DNA of 20,000 nucleotides from an uncultured virus (IMG/VR IMGVR_UViG_3300022833_000008) (IMGVR_UViG_3300022833_000008); one strand, 5' to 3'; numbered from the stretch's first letter, positions 1,901 through 20,000 are shown. Notes: generated by a model not told the origin, from the sequence alone. Translations and numbers: made by a program.

Positions 1901-1915
1901 CAAGGCCCGTACAAT
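1901..1915 (+). promoter_or_regulatory. 15-bp intergenic motif CAAGGCCCGTACAAT, copy 1 (candidate phage promoter)
   Basis: Identical to 17944-17958; both copies are intergenic, just after a stop codon and upstream of hairpins. Confidence 0.5.
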
Positions 1916-1976: not shown

Positions 1977-3182
1977 ATGGCAACTAGTTTAATTCATAAA
2001 AAATCTTCTACTGCAGGGTCTGCTCCAACAGCGACAGACTTACAGCCCGGAGAATTGGCCCTAAACCTCTCTGATAAGAAGATTTATTCAAAAGACACTT
2101 CTGGAAACATTATTGAATTTTCAGGAGAAGCCGCTGGGGTTCTACTCTATGCAGAGAAACCAGTAGCGCAAACAACACCTAGCGCTACAGGAAACAACTC
2201 CCTAGCGTTTGGTAGTTCTTCAGTATCTTCAGGAGTTAGCTCTGTTTCTTTCGGAGAAGCTTTGGCCCAAGGTGACTATTCTATCGCTATTAACATACAA
2301 GACAACACAAACACCTACGGCGCACTTGGCTTTGGTTCCATTGCAATGGGTGAAAACTCAAAAGCTGATAATATAGGCGCTTTGTCTATTGGTGAAAGCT
2401 GCACAGCTTCAGGCGAAAAAGCTCTAGCTATTGGTGAAAGCTCAATTGCTGCTGGTTTTGAAGGTTTTGCACTTGGCAGTCAATCCGAGGCTTCTGGTTA
2501 TAGAGCTTTTGCCGCAGGTTTTAAGTCAATTTCTTCTGGCAGTTGGTCTTTTTCAATAGGTCCAAGAGAAGCCCTTGCTAGTGGTCATGGATCTATGGCT
2601 ATTGGTCGGTTTGCAGAAGCTACTGGTCGCCACGCTGTTTGCATTAGCAGCACAGAGTTTGGAGAAAGTGTCGCCTCTGGTGAACACTCTTTTGCTATAG
2701 GTAATAAAGCAGAAGCAAGTATTATCGGAAAGATGGTTTACTCAGGTCCAAACTTTGGATCTCTCGGAGACGCTCAAACAGGAACCCAAGTTCTATTTGC
2801 AACAACTCTTGACGGTAGTTCTACTATTAGTTATTTGACTTCAAATGGTCAAAATAAAAGTGATGATAATCAAATCTGTTTAGCTCCTGATTCTGCTCTG
2901 ACTTTTTCAGGAACAGTCATTGCAAGAGAAGATTCTTCAGATGGTAGTGAATACGCTAGCTGGGAAATCAAAGGTGTTGCCTTACGTGACACTGGACTAA
3001 ACACTATTGTTTTAGGTTATTCTACAAGCACCAAGACGTTTTCTACAACTAACGCGAGTAGTTGGGCTATATCGATATTAGCAGACACTTCTCACGGTGC
3101 CATAACTATTAGGGCAGACGGAGAGTCTTCTACAAACATACGCTGGGTTGCCAGTATACAAACAAGTGAGGTAAAGTACTAA
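1977..3182 (+). CDS. Tail fibre/adhesin with YadA-head (Hep/Hag)-like repeats
   Basis: AAGGA RBS. N-terminus is paralogous to 867..1895. About 14-residue repeats of type (S/A)xAIGxxSxAxG (SIAMGENSKA, ALSIGESCTASG, ALAIGESSIAAG, SMAIGRFAEATG, SFAIGNKAEA), followed by a beta-rich C-terminal domain. Confidence 0.8.
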   Translation: MATSLIHKKSSTAGSAPTATDLQPGELALNLSDKKIYSKDTSGNIIEFSGEAAGVLLYAEKPVAQTTPSATGNNSLAFGSSSVSSGVSSVSFGEALAQGDYSIAINIQDNTNTYGALGFGSIAMGENSKADNIGALSIGESCTASGEKALAIGESSIAAGFEGFALGSQSEASGYRAFAAGFKSISSGSWSFSIGPREALASGHGSMAIGRFAEATGRHAVCISSTEFGESVASGEHSFAIGNKAEASIIGKMVYSGPNFGSLGDAQTGTQVLFATTLDGSSTISYLTSNGQNKSDDNQICLAPDSALTFSGTVIAREDSSDGSEYASWEIKGVALRDTGLNTIVLGYSTSTKTFSTTNASSWAISILADTSHGAITIRADGESSTNIRWVASIQTSEVKY

Positions 3183-10227: not shown

Positions 10228-10629
10228 ATGTCAGTATCAATTATTACTCTTTTAGCACCTATTATTGGAGATTTAGTTAAAAAGCTAATCCCTGACGCAG
10301 ACAAAGCTAAAGACATTGAAAAAGAAGTAAAGTTGGCTTTACTAGATCACACAGACTCTCTCGAATCTATCCGAGGGAGTATTGTACTTAGCGAAACAAA
10401 ATCAGACAGTTGGTTGACCGCCACATGGCGACCCTTACTTATGATGGTCATTGTCTCTATTGTGGCAATGAACTACCTCATATTTCCACTAATAGGTTTA
10501 ATGTTTGGTGTTGAACTTATGATCGACCTTCCTGAAGAACTTTGGGGTCTTCTCCAAATCGGCGTAGGTGGTTATGTTGTAGGTCGATCTGGTGAGAAAA
10601 TGATAGAAAAATGGAGTGACTCAAAATGA
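10228..10629 (+). CDS. Holin (GTA-type 3TM holin family)
   Basis: SWLTATWRP motif, hydrophobic helices, LLQIGVGGYVVGRS.EK. AAGGA RBS; overlaps the endolysin. Confidence 0.85.
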   Translation: MSVSIITLLAPIIGDLVKKLIPDADKAKDIEKEVKLALLDHTDSLESIRGSIVLSETKSDSWLTATWRPLLMMVIVSIVAMNYLIFPLIGLMFGVELMIDLPEELWGLLQIGVGGYVVGRSGEKMIEKWSDSK

Positions 10630-11141
10630 AGACGACTAAAATGTTTAAAGATAAACCTCAAGCAAAAGATAAAAAGGAACCTAAATTGAAAACTTATGAT
10701 TGGCATTTCGGAAATCGTTCTGAAATGAAGATGGTAGACGTAGATGCTCGACTTATTGAAGTTGTACGTCTTGCCCTGCCACTTAGCCCTATTGATTTTG
10801 GTATTACTTGTGGGCTACGTTCTCAACACGAACAAAACCAATTACTTGCACAAGGTAAGACACAAGCCCGTTACTCTCGTCATCAGGACGGAATGGCAAT
10901 TGATGTTGTTGCGTATGAGAATGGTAAGGTGTCTTGGGAACTTGAACACTACATTACTATTGCGGACGCTTTCGCTAAGGCTTGTAAGCAGACAAAGCTA
11001 GGTGTTCGTTGGGGGGGTGGTTGGCCGTTCTACCTTGATGAACATACAGGCAAAGAGTCTCATGACGCCTATCTTGAAATGAAAAGACTACAGGGCAGAC
11101 GAGCATTTATTGACGGGCCTCACTACGAAATCCCCAAATAA
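10626..11141 (+). CDS. Endolysin, peptidase M15 family (L-Ala-D-Glu peptidase, T5-type)
   Basis: DFGITCGLRS..EQ, SRHQDGMAID (Zn ligands His and Asp), RWGGGW and DGPHYE. Confidence 0.9.
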   Translation: MKTTKMFKDKPQAKDKKEPKLKTYDWHFGNRSEMKMVDVDARLIEVVRLALPLSPIDFGITCGLRSQHEQNQLLAQGKTQARYSRHQDGMAIDVVAYENGKVSWELEHYITIADAFAKACKQTKLGVRWGGGWPFYLDEHTGKESHDAYLEMKRLQGRRAFIDGPHYEIPK

Positions 11142-11163
11142 TAAATACCCGCAAATAATGATA
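11140..11163 (+). repeat. 24-bp direct repeat AATAAATACCCGCAAATAATGATA, copy 1
   Basis: Identical to 11272-11295. Confidence 0.95.
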
Positions 11164-11225
11164 CAGTGGAGCAGGCTCTCAAGTCTGACAGCTCCTCTGT
11201 CTTCAAGATGACCGGAATACATCTA

Positions 11226-11253
11226 GTTAGGGTGGGTTAATTCTCACCCTGAC
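11226..11253 (+). other. 11-bp stem-loop GTTAGGGTGGG-TTAATT-CTCACCCTGAC
   Basis: Inverted repeat with two G-U pairs, located between the two 24-bp repeats. Confidence 0.6.
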
Positions 11254-11271
11254 GACCTTATTTCTATCAAG

Positions 11272-11295
11272 AATAAATACCCGCAAATAATGATA
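11272..11295 (+). repeat. 24-bp direct repeat, copy 2
   Basis: Identical to 11140-11163, 132 bp downstream. Confidence 0.95.
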
Positions 11296-11322
11296 GTAGG
11301 TGTCCCTAATTAAAGGGATAAT

Positions 11323-11376
11323 TTAAGTATATCTAAAGGTATAATAGTGATTATGTTTGTCTTTAAATATACTTAA
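11323..11376. repeat. 16-bp inverted repeat (15/16 match) upstream of the portal
   Basis: TTAAGTATATCTAAAG (11323-38) and CTTTAAATATACTTAA (11361-76), with an inner ATAAT/ATTAT stem. Confidence 0.75.
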
Positions 11377-11433
11377 CAAAACAAAACAACTAGAAGGGCT
11401 TTATTGCCTGTTAACCAGATAATGAGGTAAATA

Positions 11434-13008
11434 ATGGCTCTAATTAAAACAGCAGCTAATACAACTAAACGTGGAGTAGAAACACCTTCTGCAGCTTACT
11501 TGTCTATGAAACCACTTTGGAAGAAAGCTCGGGCAATTCTTCAAGGTGAAGCTAATGCTAAGGCACATGATGACTTGCTGAAGTACGACTATAGCAACTT
11601 ACTACTACCTTTCTCTCCAAGTATGACTGCTGCACAGTATGACTTTTATAAAGCTGAGGCTGAACTTCCGGGTTTAACTACCCAGTATGCAAGAGTATTG
11701 ATTAGTGCATTGTTGCGTAAACCATCTTCTTTAGAACTACCTGACGCTCTTGACGATAGTGTAAAAGAGTGGTTAACAAAAGATATTACCTTAGACGGTG
11801 CTTCTCTGTTTAACTTCTTAGATGCTGCTATCTGGGAAGAACTCCAAACTTCTCGTGCTTGGGTTTATGTTGATCGTCCAACTATTTCTGATGAAGAGCT
11901 AGAAGATATGGACCCTGAAGTCAGAGATATGATTTCACCGTATCCTGTTTTGATCAGAGCAGAAAATGTAATTAACGTACAATTGAGCACACACCCTGTT
12001 ACAAGGGTAAAGACACTCAGCCGTTGGGTTACTAGATACATTTCTGAAGAATTTACTCTTGACAACCCTTGGCATCCAAGTTATGTTGATACTGTTTGTG
12101 ATCACTACCTTGATGAACAAGGTTTCTTAGTTCTTGATTATTACAAAAAATCAGGAGGAGGCCAGCAAGTAGAAGCTCTCAATGGAGAAATTTCTCAAGA
12201 ATACGCCGACTCTGCTGCTGGTGGTTTTACTAAGTATGATACTAAATTCCCAATGAAGTTTGGTAAACGCCTAAGTCGTATTCCTGCTTGGCCTCTTAAT
12301 GGGCAGCTAGACGCGGTAGAACCTGTACTTATGCCCTTGATCGATAGAGAAGTTGCACTGTATAATAAAGTTTCTCGTCGTAACCACCTTTTAATGGGTG
12401 CTGCTACTTATACTCCAATTGTTCAATCTGATATGACAGATGAAGAGTTTGACAAGCTTTGTGATGCGGGTTTAGGTTCTTGGCTACGAGTTCGTAAAGA
12501 TGAATCTATTACTGTTTTAGAAACACCTACTAGTGCGCTTGCAGACATGGATCGAGCTATCGAAGCTACAGTTGGTGAAATGGCTAAGATGGGTATTCGA
12601 ATGTTATCTCCGGAACAAGCCGCTTCAGGTATTGCTTTAGAGATTCGTAACGCTTCTCAAACTGCACAGCTAGGGACTCTTAACGCTAAGATTTCCGGTA
12701 CTATGCAAGAAATTATTTCTTTTATGATCAACTGGAAGTACGATACTGACTTGACAGGTAATGATGTTGAATTTCAGCTTTCTTCTGACTTTGCTGCTAC
12801 TGTTGGCGGTGAAGGTGCAATGCGCTTGGTAGCTGAGTGGTATCAGTCCGGTGTTATTGATCGTAATACTTTCGTCACAATTGCCAAGTTTAATGATTTT
12901 CTTCCAGCTGACTATAATGATGAAGAAGCCACAAAGTCAATTCAAACTGACCCTTTAGTGGCAAATCCTAACTCACAGGAATCACAAGTCACAATGGAAG
13001 ATATGTAA
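11434..13008 (+). CDS. Portal protein (DUF4055/SPP1-like)
   Basis: 524 aa, GAGG RBS, WVYVD.P, PY..LIRAENVIN, acidic tail. First gene of the portal-MuF-scaffold-MCP series. Confidence 0.85.
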   Translation: MALIKTAANTTKRGVETPSAAYLSMKPLWKKARAILQGEANAKAHDDLLKYDYSNLLLPFSPSMTAAQYDFYKAEAELPGLTTQYARVLISALLRKPSSLELPDALDDSVKEWLTKDITLDGASLFNFLDAAIWEELQTSRAWVYVDRPTISDEELEDMDPEVRDMISPYPVLIRAENVINVQLSTHPVTRVKTLSRWVTRYISEEFTLDNPWHPSYVDTVCDHYLDEQGFLVLDYYKKSGGGQQVEALNGEISQEYADSAAGGFTKYDTKFPMKFGKRLSRIPAWPLNGQLDAVEPVLMPLIDREVALYNKVSRRNHLLMGAATYTPIVQSDMTDEEFDKLCDAGLGSWLRVRKDESITVLETPTSALADMDRAIEATVGEMAKMGIRMLSPEQAASGIALEIRNASQTAQLGTLNAKISGTMQEIISFMINWKYDTDLTGNDVEFQLSSDFAATVGGEGAMRLVAEWYQSGVIDRNTFVTIAKFNDFLPADYNDEEATKSIQTDPLVANPNSQESQVTMEDM

Positions 13009-13089
13009 GTTAGAGCAGGTCGCGGTCTCAAACGATGTCACAGGCGTCACATCAATGAGAAGCTTGGTTCGATTCCATAACTAACACCA
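13009..13089 (+). ncRNA. tRNA-like element (T-loop, partial acceptor stem, 3' ACCA; no D or anticodon arm)
   Basis: GTTAG(13009-13)/CTAAC(13081-85)+ACCA, GGTTCGATTCC T-loop, and an internal long hairpin TCTCA..GATGT..ACATC..TGAGA. Confidence 0.5.
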
Positions 13090-13095
13090 AAATAA

Positions 13096-13130
13096 AAGGC
13101 ATCCTTGATATAATTTTACAAGGGTGTCTT
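13096..13130 (+). other. 12-bp stem-loop directly before tRNA-Thr; loop contains TATAAT
   Basis: AAGGCATCCTTG / CAAGGGTGTCTT with G-U pairs. Confidence 0.5.
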
Positions 13131-13132
13131 GC

Positions 13133-13208
13133 GCTGCAATAACTCAGTTGGTAGAGTGCTTCACTTGTAATGAAGATGTCCGGAGTTCGAACCTTCGTTG
13201 CAGCACCA
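13133..13208 (+). tRNA. tRNA-Thr(UGU)
   Basis: Acceptor GCTGCAA/TTGCAGC, D-stem ACTC/GAGT, anticodon arm CTTCA-CTTGTAA-TGAAG, T-loop TTCGAAC, encoded CCA. Confidence 0.95.
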
Positions 13209-13212
13209 ATAA

Positions 13213-13289
13213 CCGTGCATAGCTCAAATGGATAGAGCAAGATTTTTCTACAGTCTAGGTTGTGGGTTCAAGTCCTACTGCGCGGTCCA
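13213..13289 (+). tRNA. tRNA-Arg(UCU)
   Basis: Acceptor CCGTGCA/TGCGCGG, D-stem GCTC/GAGC with A20, anticodon arm AGATT-TTTCTAC-AGTCT, T-loop TTCAAGT, CCA. Confidence 0.88.
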
Positions 13290-13310
13290 AGTATTACACT
13301 AATAAAATAT

Positions 13311-13385
13311 TCTCTGTAGCGCACAAGGTGTGCGGTCTGACTGTTAATCAGCTGTAGCTTGGTTCGATTCCAAGACAGAGAGCCA
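13311..13385 (+). tRNA. tRNA-Asn(GUU), atypical D arm
   Basis: Acceptor TCTCTGT/ACAGAGA, G73, CCA. Anticodon loop CTGTTAA; T arm CTTGG-TTCGATT-CCAAG. Confidence 0.85.
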
Positions 13386-13489
13386 ATATTTAACCTAGCT
13401 GGATAGGTAAAGCCTGTAAAACGACCCTGCTGGGGTTTGGCGTCCAGACTTATAAATCAATCTCACGAATGAAGTAATGGGGAAAACTT

Positions 13490-16400
13490 ATGTCTATTAA
13501 CGAAAAGATCTTTGACCGTATTGTTGACCATAGCGGTGATGTACGTTTATACGAAAACGGAGTCCAAGCGAAGAATAATACAATTCTTAAAAAACACAGG
13601 TTTAACCTTAGAGACCTTCTAAAAGGAAACTTGAGGTCTAATGTCAAACCCGAGGTAACTCGTTTTGCTAAAGAATTAAATGATCACAACGTTAAGAGTA
13701 TGCTAGACTTTAGCAACTCCCAGACTGTTTTCCACACAAATAACTTAAACGCAGAAGTGAAAAACTTCTATAGACTTCAAAAACCAAAGACTAAAGACCT
13801 TCTCCTTGAGATTACTGGCCCTCAGATTAAAGGTGTTAAGTCTCTTTCTGGCAACGTTAAAAACATTGCTTCTGGTGAACTAGTCCGTATTCAAACTAAA
13901 GTAAAAGGTGGCCTTGCTAGAGGTCTAACCCCTGATGAAATTATCGATGATGTTTTAAAAACAACTAAGATTACAGAACATCAGGCGCGTACTTTAACAA
14001 GAACTTCTATTACAGCTACACAAACGAACGCCTTGAATAGTGTTATGTCTGCAAACTCTGACTTGATCAGTGGTTTTATGTTTACTGCAATCTTAGACGG
14101 TAGAACAAGCGCTGTATGCTCTTATCACAACGGCAAAGTTTATGACATTGGTGATAATAGGTTTAAACCCCCTCTGCACTGGCAGTGCCGATCAACAATG
14201 GTTCCTGTAATCAAGAGTCAAGAGGAACTATTAAGTCTTCCTTTAGCTAACGTAAAACCCAGGAACTTGGCAAAAGTACACCCTTCAGAACTAACGGGTA
14301 TAATGCCAGCTATTCGAACTTACTCCGCTTGGCTGCGTACACAAGGTTCTAACGTACAAATTAAGATGCTAGGCGGTGAGCGTCAAGCTAAACTATTCCA
14401 AGACGGTAAGTTAGAAGCTTCAGAGTTTGTTTCCCCAGAAGGTAAAGCACTTTCTATTATGGGTTTAATGCGTAGAGCAAATCAAACTATTAAGCGACCT
14501 ACTTCGACTAACGATAGTAATACAACTTTAAGATTTTCTAACCCTAAAGAACTAATGGAGTCTAAAGCAAATAGAGCCGCCTTGCTAGATCACTTTAAGA
14601 ATGACGCAGCAGAAAATGCTCAAGCTTTAGCTTTGACTGATTTTAAAGGCAACTCTCTTTCACAAAAGCAAGGTAGCAGACGTTCTTTTAAGAACAGTCG
14701 AGAAGGCTCAGTTATGTCTGCTAGTGGTACAGACTACACAAGTAATGCAGGTCGTCACCTTCAAGTACAAGAGCCAGACATTCTTACTGAAAGACTCGCA
14801 AGGGTTCAAGATAGCGAAGGTTTAGAACTTGCTCAAAAGAAGTTTATTAAAGACTTTGTTTCAGATCTAGGCAGAGACGTTTCTATTAATCAGCGATCGG
14901 TTATTACTGACGTTCTCCGACAGACATTTACTCGTTCTAACGTTAGTGGTGAGCCTTGGGGTAAACCAACTTCTGTAATGAGAAAGTTCACTATCAATGC
15001 TGTACAAGATTTAGGTACTTTAATGTTTAACCGATCAACAGATCGTGGTAAGCTATTTGGGAACTTGACTGCAAAACTAGCAGATGACCCCGAAGTATTT
15101 TTGTTTGGTAAAAAGTATACTATTTCTGAACTTGTAGATAGTCAAATTGCAGATAATCGATATATTGAAACTTGGAGAGGTAAGTACGGGGCTAAGTTAG
15201 CAAAGAAGTCTTACTTTAATGGTAAAGCCCCTTTAGCAGCCTACACTCAACCAATTATCAAGCTGTACCCAAACCGTTCAGATCTTGTTAAAAAGCTTCT
15301 AGACTTGTTCGTGAGTGAGTCAAAACGCAAAAACATAAAAGAATTGTTTAAAACAAAACCTCCAACAGACAGCTGGATTACTTCGCAGATTTCAAATGTT
15401 AGAGGCAAAGCTAGAGAATTTCTAGACTTAGAGTTTTTGTACAATAGAGACCGTAAACTTGCTTTAGACAACTTAAAAGAAAAAACTATTAAGGCTACTG
15501 CAAAAGCAATGGAAGCTATTGCTACAGCAGATGGTGCCGATTATGATCTTCTTGCTATTAAGATTGGACAAATGTTTGATAAAGAGTTAGGTTCTTTGAA
15601 CCCTTTACGATCTAAATCTCTTAAAGACTTCCACAAGGACGGGAGCCGAGTTATAAACTCTCTTGAGAAGCAAGGGATGATACGGACAACAACTCTTAGA
15701 GATATTGGTACTTCTTCGCCTATTGACTTAGAAACAGGTAGACCAGTTAGTGATAAAGCATTACGCGGTATTAGTGTATCTCGGCAGCTTACTATTGTAA
15801 ACGGACCAATGCGCCAGTTACAGATTGCTGCTGAAAAGGCACGGACAGCTAGGCGTTTTGGCATTTATCATCCTAGAGATAAGATTTATGCTAGGGCTGG
15901 AAGTAAAGAGTACTTTGATGCCAGAGGCCGTAAGACCACTATGCCTGTTGTTTCTGAAAAGGTTTATGCCGATTACGATGTAAATCAAATTGACAGAGAT
16001 ATTTCTACAATGCTAAACCACGCTACTTCAGTTAAGTATGAAGTTGATAACGAGTACTTTGACTTCGCAGAAAGAGTTATTTACTTCAACGACAAACGTG
16101 GTGAAGCTAAAAAATGGGATGATATGAACGAGTGGAAGAAACTCTTTATGTCGCGCGGTAATGATGGTCGTGGTGTTTTAGCAACAGCTAAATATCATCG
16201 TAAACGTAATCAAGCCTTCTCTGTAGACGCCTCTATTGACTTTCGTGGTCGAGTGTATCACCGTGGTCTACTAACGCCTACAAAGGGTGAAGCTGTACGT
16301 CCTTTCTTGAACACTGCCAAAGCTTACAATATTGATGCGGACGCCTTAGAAGAACTTCAAGTTCAGATTGGTGCCTTGGTAGGTAGTCCTTTGGACACTT

Positions 16401-17929
16401 TGACACTAAAAGGAAGACTTACTGCTTTTAAAGAGCAAGAAGACAATCTGTTAAAAATCGGAGATTATATGTTGAGTCCAACTCAACCTGATCGAAGAGT
16501 TAAAGAATTCCTTTCTAACCCACTAGTAGCAGCTACTGAAGAAAAAGAAGTAGGTAAACTCGCTCGACTAGCATTGGAATACACTCGTATACATAGGCAT
16601 ATGGGCGGTAAAATGTTAATTGACAAGTCTAAGTGGACACCTGATGATTTAAAGCTAATCTCTGAATACAAAACAAAGATGATGATTGAAAATGACGCTA
16701 GTTCTTCTGGCGCTCAAATTATTTCCTTGTCTACAGGAGATCGTGCTGCAGGTGAACTCTCTAACGTACTTCAGACTTCTAAGAAACAAAGACTTTATGA
16801 TGAAATTGCAAAACGTACAGTTGACGATCCTGAGTTTCTAGCTATCCCTGAGTTAGCTGATCTCGATCTTAACTGGACAGACCTTATGAAAGCCGCCAAG
16901 AATCAAAACATGGTTGCCTTTTATGGTGCTGGAGACGCAACTAAAGCTGCAAACGTAGCTAATAAGTTTGCCGATGTTCTAGCAAAGAAAGGTAAGATTG
17001 CAATTTCAACAAAAGAAGTTGATAAGTTTAAAGCCGCTATTGATGCTAAGATTAGCTTCGAAATGGACAGAAAAAACTGGACTCGTATTGATGAATTACG
17101 AGACATTAAGAAACAAGTAGTAGCTGCCTCGAAAGAAGGTAACTCTATAACCGACTCTCTTTATGAAACCGCAAGGTCAGAGTTTAGAGAAGGTATGAAG
17201 AACTCCGAAGACATGCACACATTTTTAATGAAGTTAACCGATGAAACAGGAGACCTTGTAGGTACTCGTTTATTCGCTAAGATTTCAGCAATTATGTCAC
17301 GTCAGTTGGAAAAGGAAGTTCCTGTCACTGGTAAGTTTATTAACTTCTGGAAAGATATTGCGAAAGACTTTGTAAAAGAGTCGGGATCGGTAGACATTCC
17401 TTGGGTTACGTTTGATGGTAAAACCATGTTACAACGTTACCGTGTAAAGGAACAAGTAAGAATAGACTTTAAAGATCCAATTACAGATCAAAAAGTCTTC
17501 AACATATACGAAGCACCGAGTAAGGATGACAAGTTTGCATCCCAACAGTCCATTCAAGAAGCTTCCATTGGGCTAGGTGTTAACGGTAATCACAGTAACG
17601 ATGCTGTAATTGTCCGACAATTTCACTTATGGGGCGCGAAGAATAACGTGGAAACTGGAACTATCCACGATGCTTTCTTCACAAACTTAGGTAAGGCGGT
17701 TCCCGCTAAATTTGCCTTGAGACAGATCTATGCAAATGCTCTAGAACAAGGTACTATTAAACAAACCCTCGCAGCAATGCGCAAGGCTGGTCTTTCAAAC
17801 AAGACTTATAAACTATACTTACAACGCGCAAAAGATGACGGACTTATTGACCCTGTTAATAAGATTACTCCTTCTGAAATTGTTGAAGCTATCCGTCCCG
17901 GAAATGACTGGTACGGCATCGGCCCCTGA
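13490..17929 (+). CDS. MuF/SPP1-gp7-like minor head protein fused to a T7-family single-subunit DNA-dependent RNA polymerase (putative virion RNAP)
   Basis: N-terminus has the MuF signature ARTLTRT, FTAILDGRTSAVC and PPLHWQCRS (about aa 227-235). C-terminus has DFRGRVY (about 917), motif A NDASSSGAQ (D about 1069), motif B K-x7-YG (K1137..Y1145), IPWVTFDG, NGNHSNDA (about 1368) and motif C IHDAF (D about 1394). Confidence 0.92.
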   Translation: MSINEKIFDRIVDHSGDVRLYENGVQAKNNTILKKHRFNLRDLLKGNLRSNVKPEVTRFAKELNDHNVKSMLDFSNSQTVFHTNNLNAEVKNFYRLQKPKTKDLLLEITGPQIKGVKSLSGNVKNIASGELVRIQTKVKGGLARGLTPDEIIDDVLKTTKITEHQARTLTRTSITATQTNALNSVMSANSDLISGFMFTAILDGRTSAVCSYHNGKVYDIGDNRFKPPLHWQCRSTMVPVIKSQEELLSLPLANVKPRNLAKVHPSELTGIMPAIRTYSAWLRTQGSNVQIKMLGGERQAKLFQDGKLEASEFVSPEGKALSIMGLMRRANQTIKRPTSTNDSNTTLRFSNPKELMESKANRAALLDHFKNDAAENAQALALTDFKGNSLSQKQGSRRSFKNSREGSVMSASGTDYTSNAGRHLQVQEPDILTERLARVQDSEGLELAQKKFIKDFVSDLGRDVSINQRSVITDVLRQTFTRSNVSGEPWGKPTSVMRKFTINAVQDLGTLMFNRSTDRGKLFGNLTAKLADDPEVFLFGKKYTISELVDSQIADNRYIETWRGKYGAKLAKKSYFNGKAPLAAYTQPIIKLYPNRSDLVKKLLDLFVSESKRKNIKELFKTKPPTDSWITSQISNVRGKAREFLDLEFLYNRDRKLALDNLKEKTIKATAKAMEAIATADGADYDLLAIKIGQMFDKELGSLNPLRSKSLKDFHKDGSRVINSLEKQGMIRTTTLRDIGTSSPIDLETGRPVSDKALRGISVSRQLTIVNGPMRQLQIAAEKARTARRFGIYHPRDKIYARAGSKEYFDARGRKTTMPVVSEKVYADYDVNQIDRDISTMLNHATSVKYEVDNEYFDFAERVIYFNDKRGEAKKWDDMNEWKKLFMSRGNDGRGVLATAKYHRKRNQAFSVDASIDFRGRVYHRGLLTPTKGEAVRPFLNTAKAYNIDADALEELQVQIGALVGSPLDTLTLKGRLTAFKEQEDNLLKIGDYMLSPTQPDRRVKEFLSNPLVAATEEKEVGKLARLALEYTRIHRHMGGKMLIDKSKWTPDDLKLISEYKTKMMIENDASSSGAQIISLSTGDRAAGELSNVLQTSKKQRLYDEIAKRTVDDPEFLAIPELADLDLNWTDLMKAAKNQNMVAFYGAGDATKAANVANKFADVLAKKGKIAISTKEVDKFKAAIDAKISFEMDRKNWTRIDELRDIKKQVVAASKEGNSITDSLYETARSEFREGMKNSEDMHTFLMKLTDETGDLVGTRLFAKISAIMSRQLEKEVPVTGKFINFWKDIAKDFVKESGSVDIPWVTFDGKTMLQRYRVKEQVRIDFKDPITDQKVFNIYEAPSKDDKFASQQSIQEASIGLGVNGNHSNDAVIVRQFHLWGAKNNVETGTIHDAFFTNLGKAVPAKFALRQIYANALEQGTIKQTLAAMRKAGLSNKTYKLYLQRAKDDGLIDPVNKITPSEIVEAIRPGNDWYGIGP

Positions 17930-17943
17930 ATATTTGTAATAGG

Positions 17944-17958
17944 CAAGGCCCGTACAAT
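17944..17958 (+). promoter_or_regulatory. 15-bp motif CAAGGCCCGTACAAT, copy 2, upstream of scaffold and MCP
   Basis: Identical to 1901-1915. Confidence 0.5.
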
Positions 17959-17972
17959 TACTAAAAACAAAA

Positions 17973-18020
17973 GAGTCTGTGACTCGAAACATAACAAATT
18001 ATTAATCCAAGCTGTGCTTG
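17973..18020 (+). promoter_or_regulatory. Twin 5-bp hairpins with TGT loops in the scaffold leader
   Basis: GAGTC-TGT-GACTC (17973-85) and CAAGC-TGT-GCTTG (18008-20), the second abutting the AAGGA RBS. Confidence 0.5.
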
Positions 18021-18033
18021 AGAAGGAAATACT

Positions 18034-18741
18034 ATGACACCTGAAGAAATTGCTGCTAACGACAAACTCGCTGCTGAAAAAGAAGTCGAACGACTCGCTG
18101 CAGAAGTTGAAGCGCAACGAATTAAAGATGAGGAAGACGAAAGCGACAAGACACCAAAAACACCTGAAGAAGAACTCGAAGCAATCGTTGAAGAACGTCT
18201 TGCTAAGATGAAAGCTAACATGGATAAAATGGCTACTGAACGCGATGGTCTTTTGAAAGATAAGGTGACTGCTGAGAAAGCAGCCAAAGAAGCGACTATT
18301 GCCCGTATGAAAGAAGAAGGTAAAGTACAAGAAGCACTCGAACTTGAGCTATCTGAAGCTCGTACCCGTCTTGCAGAATACGCTACTGAAACTACACAAC
18401 TCAAACGGGACGGTGTCCTCAACGATGCACTCTCAGGAATGGATTTCCGAAACGATAAGTCAAGAGATATGGCTCGACGTGAGATTGTAGACCAACTCGT
18501 TCAAAACGAAGATGGGTCTTGGTCACACACTGGCGGTACTAGTATTCGTGACTACACTGCCGCCTATGCAAAAGAAGAAGGCAACTCTTTCTTGTTCCGT
18601 ACTAAGTCCAATACTGGCGGCGGGACAAATAACAATGACGGTAAAATTAACACCGATGTAAGCAAGTCCATTATGGAAATGTCTACGCAAGAAATTCTAG
18701 CTCAAGCCGCAAAAGGCCAGCTAGGTAACTTTAGTGTCTAA
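18034..18741 (+). CDS. Capsid scaffolding protein
   Basis: 235 aa, E/K/A-rich coiled coil, FLF followed by a Gly/Asn linker, directly upstream of MCP. Confidence 0.85.
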   Translation: MTPEEIAANDKLAAEKEVERLAAEVEAQRIKDEEDESDKTPKTPEEELEAIVEERLAKMKANMDKMATERDGLLKDKVTAEKAAKEATIARMKEEGKVQEALELELSEARTRLAEYATETTQLKRDGVLNDALSGMDFRNDKSRDMARREIVDQLVQNEDGSWSHTGGTSIRDYTAAYAKEEGNSFLFRTKSNTGGGTNNNDGKINTDVSKSIMEMSTQEILAQAAKGQLGNFSV

Positions 18742-18775
18742 TCATTAGACTAAAAAACTCCAAGGAATAAAAACT

Positions 18776-19894
18776 ATGCCTATTACAAATACAGACTTCC
18801 AGAACATTGCACTTGCAATTTCTGCTTACGCCGATGAAGCTTATACCTCCGCTAAAAAGCTGAATGGTACAGGCATTGTCACTTCCGACCAAAAGATCGA
18901 CGTTTCCGGTGAATCGTTTATCGGTCAATTCCGCTGGTACAAGCCACTGAACGCAACAGTAAACGTTGCATCTTTGTCTTCGGCCACTGATGGTACCTAT
19001 ACAAGCGTTGCAACAGACGTTGCTAACTTCGTTAAGACTGTTCGTACCTTCGGTGCAGAGCAAGTCAACATGCAAGAAGTTGTTTCAAAGCAAGACGGTC
19101 TGGCCAAGATTGCCCGTGATTTTGCTGAAGTCCGCGCCCAAGATGAGCATGATGCTCTGTTGTCAGTTCTCAAGGGTGTCGCACTTAGCGAAGTTACTCT
19201 CGGTGACAAAGGTGGCTCCGGCAACGGCGGCATGATCGCTTTTGATACAGACGCAGACGTAGCTGCAACTGGCTTCTTTGTTGACGTAAACGCAGAAGGT
19301 CTTCACGGCGCTGCTGCAACTGGTGCTAACGACGCACGTAAACTCTTCGACGCATCCGGTATTGCCGCTGCTCGTGGTGAGCGTTTGTTCCGTTCGATCG
19401 GCGCAGCTTTCAAAGACTACGAACCAGATTTCATGTACTTGGCAACAAGCCCAGAAATCATGGCTGAAATGCGTGCGGCAAACTTGGTTGACCAAGACCG
19501 TATCAAAGATGGGAACCTTGAGTTCTCGACAATCTTTGGTGGTAAGTTCCGCCTCGTTATGACACGTGCAAATCAAATGGCATCGGGCTTCGCGTCCGGC
19601 GACCTGAACGCGCAATCAACACAGTGTTCTTTTGTTATTAAACCCGGTTCGGTTGCTGCAACAGCACTCGTAATGCCTACACCTGTTGAAGTTGACCGCA
19701 ATGCGGCTTCCTACACTGGTGGTGGTTCGACTAACGTTTGGTATCGTTGGGGCTATGTAAACCACCCAATGGGTTACGACTGGGCAGGTTCGACCTCCGC
19801 TTTCGCAACCAACGCAACAATGGGCGCAGCTGCTTCTTACGACCGTAAGATGGACGCACTGAACCTCGGCATCCTGCCAATCTTCCACACATAA
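18776..19894 (+). CDS. Major capsid protein
   Basis: 372 aa, AAGGA RBS, strongly biased codons. C-terminal VEVDRNA...GGG.....YRWGYVNHPMGYDW is typical of this HK97-fold coat family; follows the scaffold. Confidence 0.9.
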   Translation: MPITNTDFQNIALAISAYADEAYTSAKKLNGTGIVTSDQKIDVSGESFIGQFRWYKPLNATVNVASLSSATDGTYTSVATDVANFVKTVRTFGAEQVNMQEVVSKQDGLAKIARDFAEVRAQDEHDALLSVLKGVALSEVTLGDKGGSGNGGMIAFDTDADVAATGFFVDVNAEGLHGAAATGANDARKLFDASGIAAARGERLFRSIGAAFKDYEPDFMYLATSPEIMAEMRAANLVDQDRIKDGNLEFSTIFGGKFRLVMTRANQMASGFASGDLNAQSTQCSFVIKPGSVAATALVMPTPVEVDRNAASYTGGGSTNVWYRWGYVNHPMGYDWAGSTSAFATNATMGAAASYDRKMDALNLGILPIFHT

Positions 19895-19912
19895 TAGAAA
19901 GAGAGCGCACTA

Positions 19913-20000
19913 ATGACATTAGTTCTAAATGAAAACAGCTATGTCACTATTGCAGAAGCTGATAGTTACTTTGAGACTCGTATTGATAGTGCCGAATGGT
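19913..20000 (+). CDS. Head-tail adaptor/head completion protein (DnaT-like N-terminal motif), 3'-truncated
   Basis: MTLVLNENSYVTIAEADSYFETRIDSAEW contains the NSYVT..EAD.YF motif typical of the gene after MCP. Confidence 0.75.
   Translation, partial: MTLVLNENSYVTIAEADSYFETRIDSAEW

Follow-up and report, generated by a model that had tools for sequence, protein, structure and literature searches.

The 20,000-nucleotide stretch of DNA analyzed here, referred to below as the window, comes from an uncultured virus (IMG/VR record IMGVR_UViG_3300022833_000008) and encodes a single polypeptide of 1479 amino acids in which a MuF (gp7-like) head-morphogenesis module is joined to a complete T7-type single-subunit RNA polymerase (RNAP). 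The gene (13490..17929, + strand; 1479 codons plus stop) is one unbroken open reading frame (ORF) with a GGGGA ribosome-binding site 8 nucleotides 5' of its ATG. It is placed between the portal gene and the scaffold and major head genes, and the observation made in a first-pass annotation of the sequence proves correct throughout. The fusion recurs, with its catalytic residues conserved, in a family of phages that also encode a second, very divergent RNAP and carry two classes of promoter-like motifs. We judge it moderately probable that the fusion is a virion RNAP delivered by its MuF module, and that it opens a polymerase relay similar to those of phages N4 and P23-45.

Domain architecture of the fusion protein

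Phage_Mu_F and RNA_pol both match this one polypeptide above their curated Pfam cut-offs. In the amino-terminal part, Phage_Mu_F (PF04233) covers residues 134-237 (13889-14200; E 2.9e-10, 41.3 bits, cut-off 29.6) and the PHROGs head morphogenesis family phrog_241 extends over residues 1-365 (E 2.5e-50), in agreement with the MuF signature that had been read there from the sequence. The module as we delimit it (residues 1-335; 13490..14494, + strand) is modeled with confidence up to residue 335 and contains the invariant pattern LD..T...C / PP.H..CRS. A model of residues 1-560 has a mean predicted local distance difference test score (pLDDT) of 81.6, with helical segments between low-confidence stretches at residues 110-116, 336-343, 404-426 and 525-532. 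Foldseek found no match for this model in the PDB at E<=0.001, and a wide VIA search returned generic helical bundles only (best Z 10.1). Since no solved structure specifically resembles the module, its identity as MuF rests on the profile matches and on its position next to the portal gene. The module is followed by a connector (residues 344-542; 14519..15115, + strand) made up of helices, with low confidence at residues 404-426 and 525-532, which is conserved among relatives and has no family match in Pfam or PHROGs.

The remainder of the protein (residues ~543-1479; 15116..17926, + strand) is a T7-type RNAP in which the N-terminal promoter-binding domain is included. By sequence, RNA_pol (PF00940) matches residues 1057-1429 (E 7.5e-7, 28.7 bits, cut-off 22), the PHROGs RNA polymerase family phrog_414 matches at E 8.9e-25 and phrog_2166 at just E 1.2e-4, and the whole fusion protein has no PDB match at E<=1. 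A model of residues 430-1479, computed from an input alignment of 53 relatives (mean pLDDT 85.6, predicted template modeling score (pTM) 0.81), contains the fold of the whole enzyme, with N-terminal domain, thumb, palm and fingers. Foldseek ranks T7 RNAP first for this model (E 5.7e-21), and VIA-align matches the two proteins end to end, residues 114-1049 of the model covering T7 residues 31-883 (Z 30.5, 519 aligned residues, root mean square deviation 3.4), at a sequence identity of 16-18% in the structural alignments. Next come the mitochondrial RNAPs of yeast and human (Z 26-27.6), and then the mini virion RNAP (vRNAP) of N4 (Z 17.2) and N4 gp50 (Z 14.8-14.9). A search of predicted viral structures gives the same ranking, with the DSS3 homologue first, T7-like RNAPs next and N4-like vRNAPs after them.

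Every T7-family catalytic motif named in the first-pass annotation is present in the carboxy-terminal part, and in a MAFFT alignment with T7 RNAP (from NC_001604) the residues fall into register (T7=fusion): R425=R921, D537=D1069, K631=K1137, Y639=Y1145, G640=G1146, H784=H1368, H811=H1393 and D812=D1394. Across an alignment of 115 full-length relatives these positions show at least 98% conservation, and D1069, D1394, K1137, Y1145 and G1146 stay invariant even when relatives at ~20% identity are added to the alignment. Motif A supplies the catalytic Asp1069 (16694..16696), motif B runs from K1137 to Y1145-G1146 (16898..16927) and motif C consists of His1393-Asp1394 (17666..17671), all on the + strand; the ribose-discriminating Tyr of T7 has its counterpart in the fusion. 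In the model, a beta-hairpin that precedes the His1368 helix (residues 1315-1345; 17432..17524, + strand) appears at the position of the T7 specificity loop and is unusually conserved. On the strength of the model and the alignment, the polymerase module is predicted to be complete and catalytically competent.

Conservation of the fusion and intron-split relatives

A word-indexed search returned 157 relatives. Among the 120 that are listed with precomputed Pfam families, 100 carry both domains, 19 carry MuF only (most of these are full length) and one carries RNA_pol only, with full-length identities to the window protein from 78% down to 37%. An exhaustive HMMER search with residues 430-1479 over 1.84 billion representatives gave 124 proteins, 29 of which were scanned for domains: MuF is found at the N-terminus of 19, eight have RNA_pol only and two have neither. 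Seven of the scanned proteins (1264-1538 residues) combine an N-terminal MuF with an RNAP part that is just 23-28% identical, and a further IMG/VR lineage has a 1603-residue ORF with MuF and RNA_pol behind a DUF4055 portal gene. The fusion is thus not an artefact, because 100 of the 120 listed relatives, and far more distant ones, carry both domains; in the 115 aligned relatives it is likewise one ORF. Some relatives depart from the common plan. Three longer proteins (P0126, P0129 and P0138; 1821-2073 residues) have an extra extension beyond the RNAP, and one of 1301 residues (P0157) contains MuF and part of the RNAP N-terminal region, followed by nucleotidyltransferase and GNAT matches in place of the catalytic palm.

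Within 50,697 deposited phage records, the fusion occurs only in the roseophages DSS3_VP1 and DSS3_PM1 (43.7% identity over the full length) and in the metagenomic EBPR siphovirus 1. The first-pass annotation had allowed that homologues might exist annotated only as RNA polymerase; this did not hold, as the deposited records and source names seen all point to a head protein ('minor head protein-like protein', 'head morphogenesis', 'head protein', 'SPP1 gp7 family...' and 'minor capsid protein'). The present assignment corrects these public records, which name the protein as a head protein only. The pair of MuF and RNA_pol domains is visible in precomputed Pfam tables, and is therefore in the databases yet undescribed: no paper describing a MuF-RNAP fusion was found in a search that left supplements and subscription journals outside, and the available portions of the literature on Naomviridae and DSS3_VP1 contain no description of it; a preprint on an Endozoicomonas phage has no bearing on the fusion. 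The word 'polymerase' has no occurrence in the main text of Jamet 2017, and Iyer 2017 (PMC5512222), in the sections available, restricts N4-like virion RNAPs to N4-like phages and prophages and mentions no fusion of MuF with an RNAP.

In some relatives the gene is split. In one with 78% identity (L005), coding stops at residue 1142 and resumes in the same frame at residue 1143 after 864 nucleotides. The insert (L005:13421-14284) matches the Rfam group I intron family RF00028 (91.8 bits, E 6.5e-24) and contains an HNH/I-TevI-like ORF. In EBPR siphovirus 1 (L002, gp47/gp48/gp49) the fusion gene is broken at this residue too and an HNH gene separates its parts, and two more contigs (G007 and G017) are broken at the same profile position. 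This shared boundary, 1142|1143 (16915|16916 in the window), lies in motif B between K1137 and Y1145 in relatives that are 39-78% identical, indicating a conserved homing site; no intron interrupts the fusion gene of the window itself. An intron at this point in motif B speaks for a single product after splicing and for a site under strong constraint.

Genomic setting and a second polymerase

The fusion gene belongs to a block of co-directional structural genes that, in the window, comprises tail fibers, PhoH, distal tail, J-like tail, holin, endolysin, portal, tRNAs, fusion, scaffold and major head. The portal protein is of the DUF4055 type (11434..13008, + strand; phrog_145 E 2.1e-45) and is the expected docking partner of the MuF module. 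Between the end of its gene and the start of the fusion gene there are 481 nucleotides, whose sole content is three tRNA genes (tRNA-Thr(TGT), tRNA-Arg(TCT) and tRNA-Asn(GTT); 13133..13385, + strand). On the 3' side, the scaffold gene (18034..18741) and the major head protein gene (18776..19894) form a block at 18034..19894, also on the + strand. The order portal-(tRNA)-fusion-scaffold-major head is identical in the window and in DSS3_VP1, and the fusion gene adjoins the portal gene in one more relative (L153); DSS3_VP1 has a tRNA-Asn gene at the matching spot between portal and fusion. The location suggests that the fusion RNAP is expressed together with the virion genes among which it is encoded. 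For an RNAP made alongside head proteins, packaging makes most sense, as for N4 gp50.

The wider genome is seen in an IMG/VR record of 63,880 bp (G002; 93% complete), which is 95% identical in nucleotides to window positions 10228-20000 and whose fusion protein is 99% identical to that of the window. A 17 kb IMG/VR fragment (G001) does not contain the fusion gene. One strand of G002 carries 96 of the 102 chosen ORFs. The order begins with terminase (split by an HNH ORF), tail and lysis genes, and continues with portal, fusion, head and tail genes and tape measure; then come a terminator-like hairpin, small ORFs, a T7-like RNAP, single-stranded DNA-binding protein, DNA polymerase, primase-helicase, ribonucleotide reductase and others. 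The phages of the family are long-tailed and have a tape measure gene.

The T7-like RNAP of G002 is a 778-residue ORF (PF00940 E 9.9e-76, phrog_414 E 8.3e-131), and its equivalent in DSS3_VP1 is gp080, annotated 'RNA polymerase'. It ends in FAFA, and it is this second enzyme, not the fusion, that fits the features of a free T7-type early-gene RNAP of ~800-900 residues. The two polymerases of one genome can barely be aligned with each other (BLASTP E 0.021). Between G002 and DSS3_VP1 they have diverged equally: the two fusions are 43.7% identical and the two T7-like RNAPs 43.3%. The next closest MuF protein is that of Pelagibacter phage Kolga (MT375529.1), which has 633 residues and no RNAP domain; Kolga encodes a T7-like RNAP ORF of 769 residues (E 3.1e-60) as well (Kolga ORFs for the T7-like RNAP and MuF: MT375529.1 34484-35788 and 45152-47053).

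Two classes of promoter-like motifs

Class 1 is represented in the window by a 20-mer at 11143..11162 and an exact copy at 11275..11294, 132 nucleotides from the first, both on the + strand and 5' of the portal and fusion genes. A terminator-like hairpin (11226-11253) stands between the two copies. G002 has five exact copies of the 20-mer on the coding strand and none on the other: two before the portal gene, one after the T7-like RNAP gene, one before an exonuclease gene and one near the end of the record. In DSS3_VP1, class 1 is an unrelated 21-mer that is found at 14 places on the + strand with <=5 mismatches, 13 of them good, and that has no good match between 29.4 and 45.9 kb, where the small ORFs and the RNAP gene are located. 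Class 1 differs in each of six genomes of the family; in the four besides G002 and DSS3_VP1, the top repeated words are distinct in each.

Class 2 is a motif of ~40 nucleotides, AAAAAAGTGAG-N-GCATCTATAATGA, that is nearly identical in all six genomes. It occurs directly after the tape measure region, in three copies in G002 and two in DSS3_VP1, and in each of the six genomes every copy (one to three, <=2 mismatches) is on the coding strand and lies past the end of the structural block but before the T7-like RNAP gene. The motif is the same in phages of 36-47% GC. Expressed as the IUPAC pattern AAGTGRG-N10-CNTCTATAATGA, it is found in 108 stretches in IMG/VR, compared with one for a reversed control pattern, and at seven single sites in 596 gigabases of bacterial and archaeal sequence (185,579 species genomes). 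The 80 class 2 loci listed from these 108 stretches are distributed over 69 contigs, often as two to four copies on one strand. The 80 unique instances yield the consensus AAAAAAGTGAGAAAA..AA.GCATCTATAATGAta.AAt, and positions not fixed by the pattern are likewise high in information. The 23 class 2-bearing contigs that reach 21 kb or more divide into 17 with the fusion, among them G002, DSS3_VP1 and G003, four fragments with just the ~750-residue T7-like RNAP and two with neither. Kolga has no class 2 match at <=2 mismatches.

At the end of both motif classes, GA follows an A/T-rich run. T7 promoters initiate at the G after TATA, and by analogy the ends of class 1 and class 2 may resemble this layout. 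N4-style hairpin promoters were considered and dropped, as the short inverted repeats found 5' of class 2 in G002 (three copies) are not a conserved feature of the 80 unique instances. Many class 2 copies have a palindrome of the GATACAAT.AGTATC type immediately 3', and on their 5' side a hairpin with a T-run and a second short repeated word, TTGTACGGGCYTTG. The same word is found in inverse orientation just past the fusion stop codon (window 17945-17957, - strand) and also at 1902-1914 (- strand). A scan of window positions 10900-19000 for sigma-70 promoters gave 16 sites, with 16.1 expected.

The specificity-loop-like hairpins of the two polymerases behave differently in the six genomes. In the fusion, the mean pairwise identity of the hairpin is 0.68, against 0.60 in its surroundings; in the T7-like RNAP it is 0.37, against 0.55. 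A frozen loop alongside a frozen class 2, and a variable loop alongside a variable class 1, are expected if the fusion reads class 2 and the T7-like RNAP reads class 1, and we take this as circumstantial evidence for such a pairing. In metatranscriptomes, 7% of the words sampled from the early region of G002 were present in just two marine runs, both from one study, as short contigs without starts or strand.

Delivery by MuF and alternative explanations

SPP1 gp7 is the prototype of the MuF proteins. According to the available part of PMC6316719, the portal protein gp6 binds gp7 strongly and targets a few copies of it into the procapsid, gp7 supports the start of infection, and gp7-like proteins are probably used by phages to bring C-terminal toxins into the capsid. 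Much the same view of MuF/gp7-like proteins as carriers of C-terminal cargo is expressed in the accessible sections of PMC5512222. The first-pass annotation had proposed that the window's phage uses MuF in this way for its own RNAP. The architecture, the intact catalytic site and the conserved fusion on which that proposal was built are all confirmed, and delivery gains circumstantial support from the second RNAP, from the late head operon behind class 1, and from the occurrence of class 2 before the early genes and the second RNAP gene.

The following sequence of events would account for these features. Late in infection, the T7-like RNAP would transcribe portal, tRNAs and fusion from class 1, and the fusion would be made at this stage, together with the head proteins. 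Its MuF module (residues 1-335) would dock on the portal during procapsid assembly, so that a few copies become enclosed in the head, with the connector of ~200 residues joining the MuF module to the RNAP (residues ~543-1479). At the next infection, the fusion would be ejected along with the DNA, and the RNAP would initiate at class 2 and transcribe the small early ORFs along with the T7-like RNAP gene. The T7-like enzyme would then take over at the genome-specific class 1 promoters that precede the replication and structural genes. Since nearly all genes point one way, the relay may also pull the genome into the cell. Transcription-driven genome entry has been described for T7 and N4.

Several points weigh against delivery or against the assignment of class 2 to the fusion. 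The main texts of two DSS3_VP1 papers are without mention of RNA polymerase, MuF or virion. The MuF module, identified from profile matches, has no solved structural relative, and the fusion ends in YGIGP, compared with FAFA in T7 and in the family's second RNAP. Two RNAP-only proteins of 785 and 812 residues (P0127 and P0131) span the polymerase module alone; IMG/VR relatives of the 812-residue protein are fused, and both proteins may be fragments. Class 2 holds a perfect sigma-70 -10 hexamer, TATAAT, and its tandem copies before the RNAP gene resemble the layout of T7, in which the tandem host promoters A1-A3 precede the RNAP gene. Furthermore, the 'specificity loop' was identified from where it lies in a computed structure, and Kolga, as the control, contributes one genome only. 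The class differences, the family specificity, the loop contrast and Kolga are not independent tests, because the genomes are related and the link between motif and fusion is a family trait.

The features of class 2 just mentioned would be explained if host sigma-70 RNAP reads the motif and makes the T7-like RNAP, and the packaged fusion has some other role at entry, for example drawing DNA in from other sites, priming, or transcription only under host shut-off. The exact TATAAT and the one to four tandem copies before the RNAP gene, as in A1-A3 of T7, fit this scheme, and the invariance of class 2 between phages in which each of the two polymerases is ~43-44% identical to its counterpart could reflect a universal host reader. 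However, there is no TTGACA-like hexamer 16-18 nucleotides upstream and no TG extension, and the block AAAAAAGTGAG, which is not a sigma-70 element, is as conserved as TATAAT. The motif is also essentially absent from the bacterial and archaeal species genomes searched, where its seven sites are singletons, and under this scheme it is not evident what a conserved RNAP with an intact catalytic site, produced alongside the head proteins, would do. We regard reading by the host enzyme as unlikely, although it deserves serious consideration. A fusion that is not ejected at all, and instead works in the producing cell (for example in late transcription or in coupling transcription to packaging) with MuF serving head morphogenesis only, is a still less likely explanation. 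MuF proteins were indeed first described as morphogenesis factors, and position in the head operon tells only when the fusion is made; yet the genome already has a T7-like RNAP with presumed promoters before the late genes, and the order of N-terminal MuF and C-terminal cargo is that proposed, in the source parts available, for delivered cargo. SPP1 gp7, moreover, is enclosed in capsids and acts at infection (PMC6316719, as far as its available text goes).

Two other explanations concern the protein itself. Its polymerase part could be an inactive relic that persists as a structural or DNA-binding head protein, for which the weak Pfam RNA_pol match (28.7 bits) and the missing T7-type FAFA terminus might be quoted; against this, the catalytic and NTP-binding residues are invariant or nearly so down to ~20% identity, and a group I intron with a homing endonuclease sits exactly in motif B, a pattern of functionally constrained sites. 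This makes a relic very improbable. That the fusion is an error of assembly or annotation, and really two genes, is scarcely credible: the RNAP-only database proteins of 785 and 812 residues could be cited in its favor, but two cultured phages and 115 aligned relatives, taken from many samples, have the same single ORF, and the 812-residue protein has fused relatives. In addition, the gene breaks that do occur fall inside the RNAP, at the intron site 1142|1143, and not at the junction of MuF and RNAP.

Comparison with known virion polymerases and MuF proteins

If delivery by MuF is correct, the closest functional parallel is N4, with its gp50 and RNAPII. Like the fusion, N4 gp50 is a single-subunit RNAP of the T7 superfamily encoded among late genes. 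In the available portion of the literature it is described as packaged and injected, and as transcribing early genes that include those for a second phage RNAP. Both N4 and the present family have two single-subunit RNAPs, which here are very divergent, and the feature expected of the virion-RNAP class, a separate second RNAP with class 2 located 5' of its gene, is found in all six genomes. The differences are considerable. N4 gp50 has ~3500 residues, with its own N- and C-terminal domains for injection and encapsidation and no MuF, whereas the fusion has 1479 residues, a C-terminal RNAP and loading presumably by MuF. The fold of the fusion is far nearer to T7 (Z 30.5) than to N4 (Z 14.8-17.2), and N4-like phages are podoviruses (Schitoviridae), in contrast to the long-tailed phages with a tape measure gene considered here. 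A giant polyprotein of the N4 gp50 type is ruled out by the length of 1479 residues, the C-terminal RNAP, the low N4 fold match and the phrog_2166 E value of 1.2e-4.

A second parallel is the Thermus phage P23-45. The available text of PMC10770324 describes its gp96 as a virion RNAP fused to the tape measure protein that transcribes pre-early genes, among them that of a non-virion RNAP; it also describes two distinct promoter motifs, of which that of the vRNAP is absent from relatives without the fusion. Going by that text, P23-45 shares with the present family both the joining of an RNAP to a virion structural protein and the co-occurrence of motif and fusion. In P23-45, however, a two-barrel (cellular-type) RNAP is carried on a tape measure protein, and here a T7-type RNAP is carried on a portal-associated head protein.

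As regards the carrier, SPP1 gp7, Mu gpF and the MuF polymorphic toxins have the same plan, with an N-terminal MuF encoded next to the portal gene and C-terminal cargo; the cargos described in the available parts of PMC6316719, PMC5576092 and PMC5512222 are toxins, nucleases, ADP-ribosyltransferases and alarmone synthetases. As regards the enzyme, the fold, the domain order and the catalytic residues are common to the fusion and to T7 RNAP (gene 1, Autographiviridae). The latter, however, is a free, early, non-virion protein of 883 residues that ends in FAFA, and the fusion RNAP forms the C-terminal two thirds of a head protein that ends in YGIGP. The MuF fusion, the head operon and the YGIGP end rule out an RNAP of the Autographiviridae gene 1 type in the narrow sense.

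Implications

Virion RNAPs are known from few phage groups, and each has changed ideas on how infection starts. Phages bring their own transcription into the cell by way of N4 gp50 and by way of the two-barrel vRNAPs of crAss-like phages and P23-45. We lean, by a slight balance of probability, toward viewing MuF-RNAP fusions as an undescribed and widespread third route, with a nearly invariant promoter of ~40 nucleotides across hosts and GC contents, a relay that is independent of host RNAP, possible genome pulling, and orthogonality to T7, T3 and SP6. If so, the MuF 'cargo carrier' would deliver a whole transcription enzyme and not toxins alone, and marine phages of a family with global distribution (Naomviridae and relatives) would start infection without the host polymerase. 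The enzyme and its promoter would then constitute a naturally orthogonal single-subunit transcription system distinct from those of T7, T3 and SP6, and a compact enzyme of this kind, paired with its conserved candidate promoter, could be turned into a new tool for orthogonal expression. The family has a cultured member, DSS3_VP1 on Ruegeria pomeroyi, in which the model can be tested directly.

Other features of the genomes

DSS3_VP1 has Dcd and Dtm genes for deoxyuridine-containing DNA (PMC12697855), which we find as a PF00383 and a PF12917-like match, respectively. A tie between the fusion and such genomes was considered and dropped, since the 93%-complete G002 has the fusion but neither gene, lacking both the dCTP deaminase and the HD-type dTMP phosphatase; the fusion is therefore independent of deoxyuridine DNA. 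Judged from the gene content of G002, the branch to which the window belongs probably has ordinary thymidine DNA.

Homing elements are abundant in the family. HNH ORFs are also found after the tape measure gene of G002 and before the fusion gene of L005, the large terminase gene of G002 (L020:1878-3845) is in two pieces around an HNH ORF, and DSS3_VP1 has the arrangement terminase / endonuclease VII / terminase. At the other end of the window, two adjacent tail-fiber-like genes (867-1895 and 1977-3182) have similar N-terminal regions of ~45 residues and unlike sequences thereafter; this suggests receptor-binding parts that can be exchanged. The difference between the window and G002 is greatest in this region, with 84-87% identity or no match.

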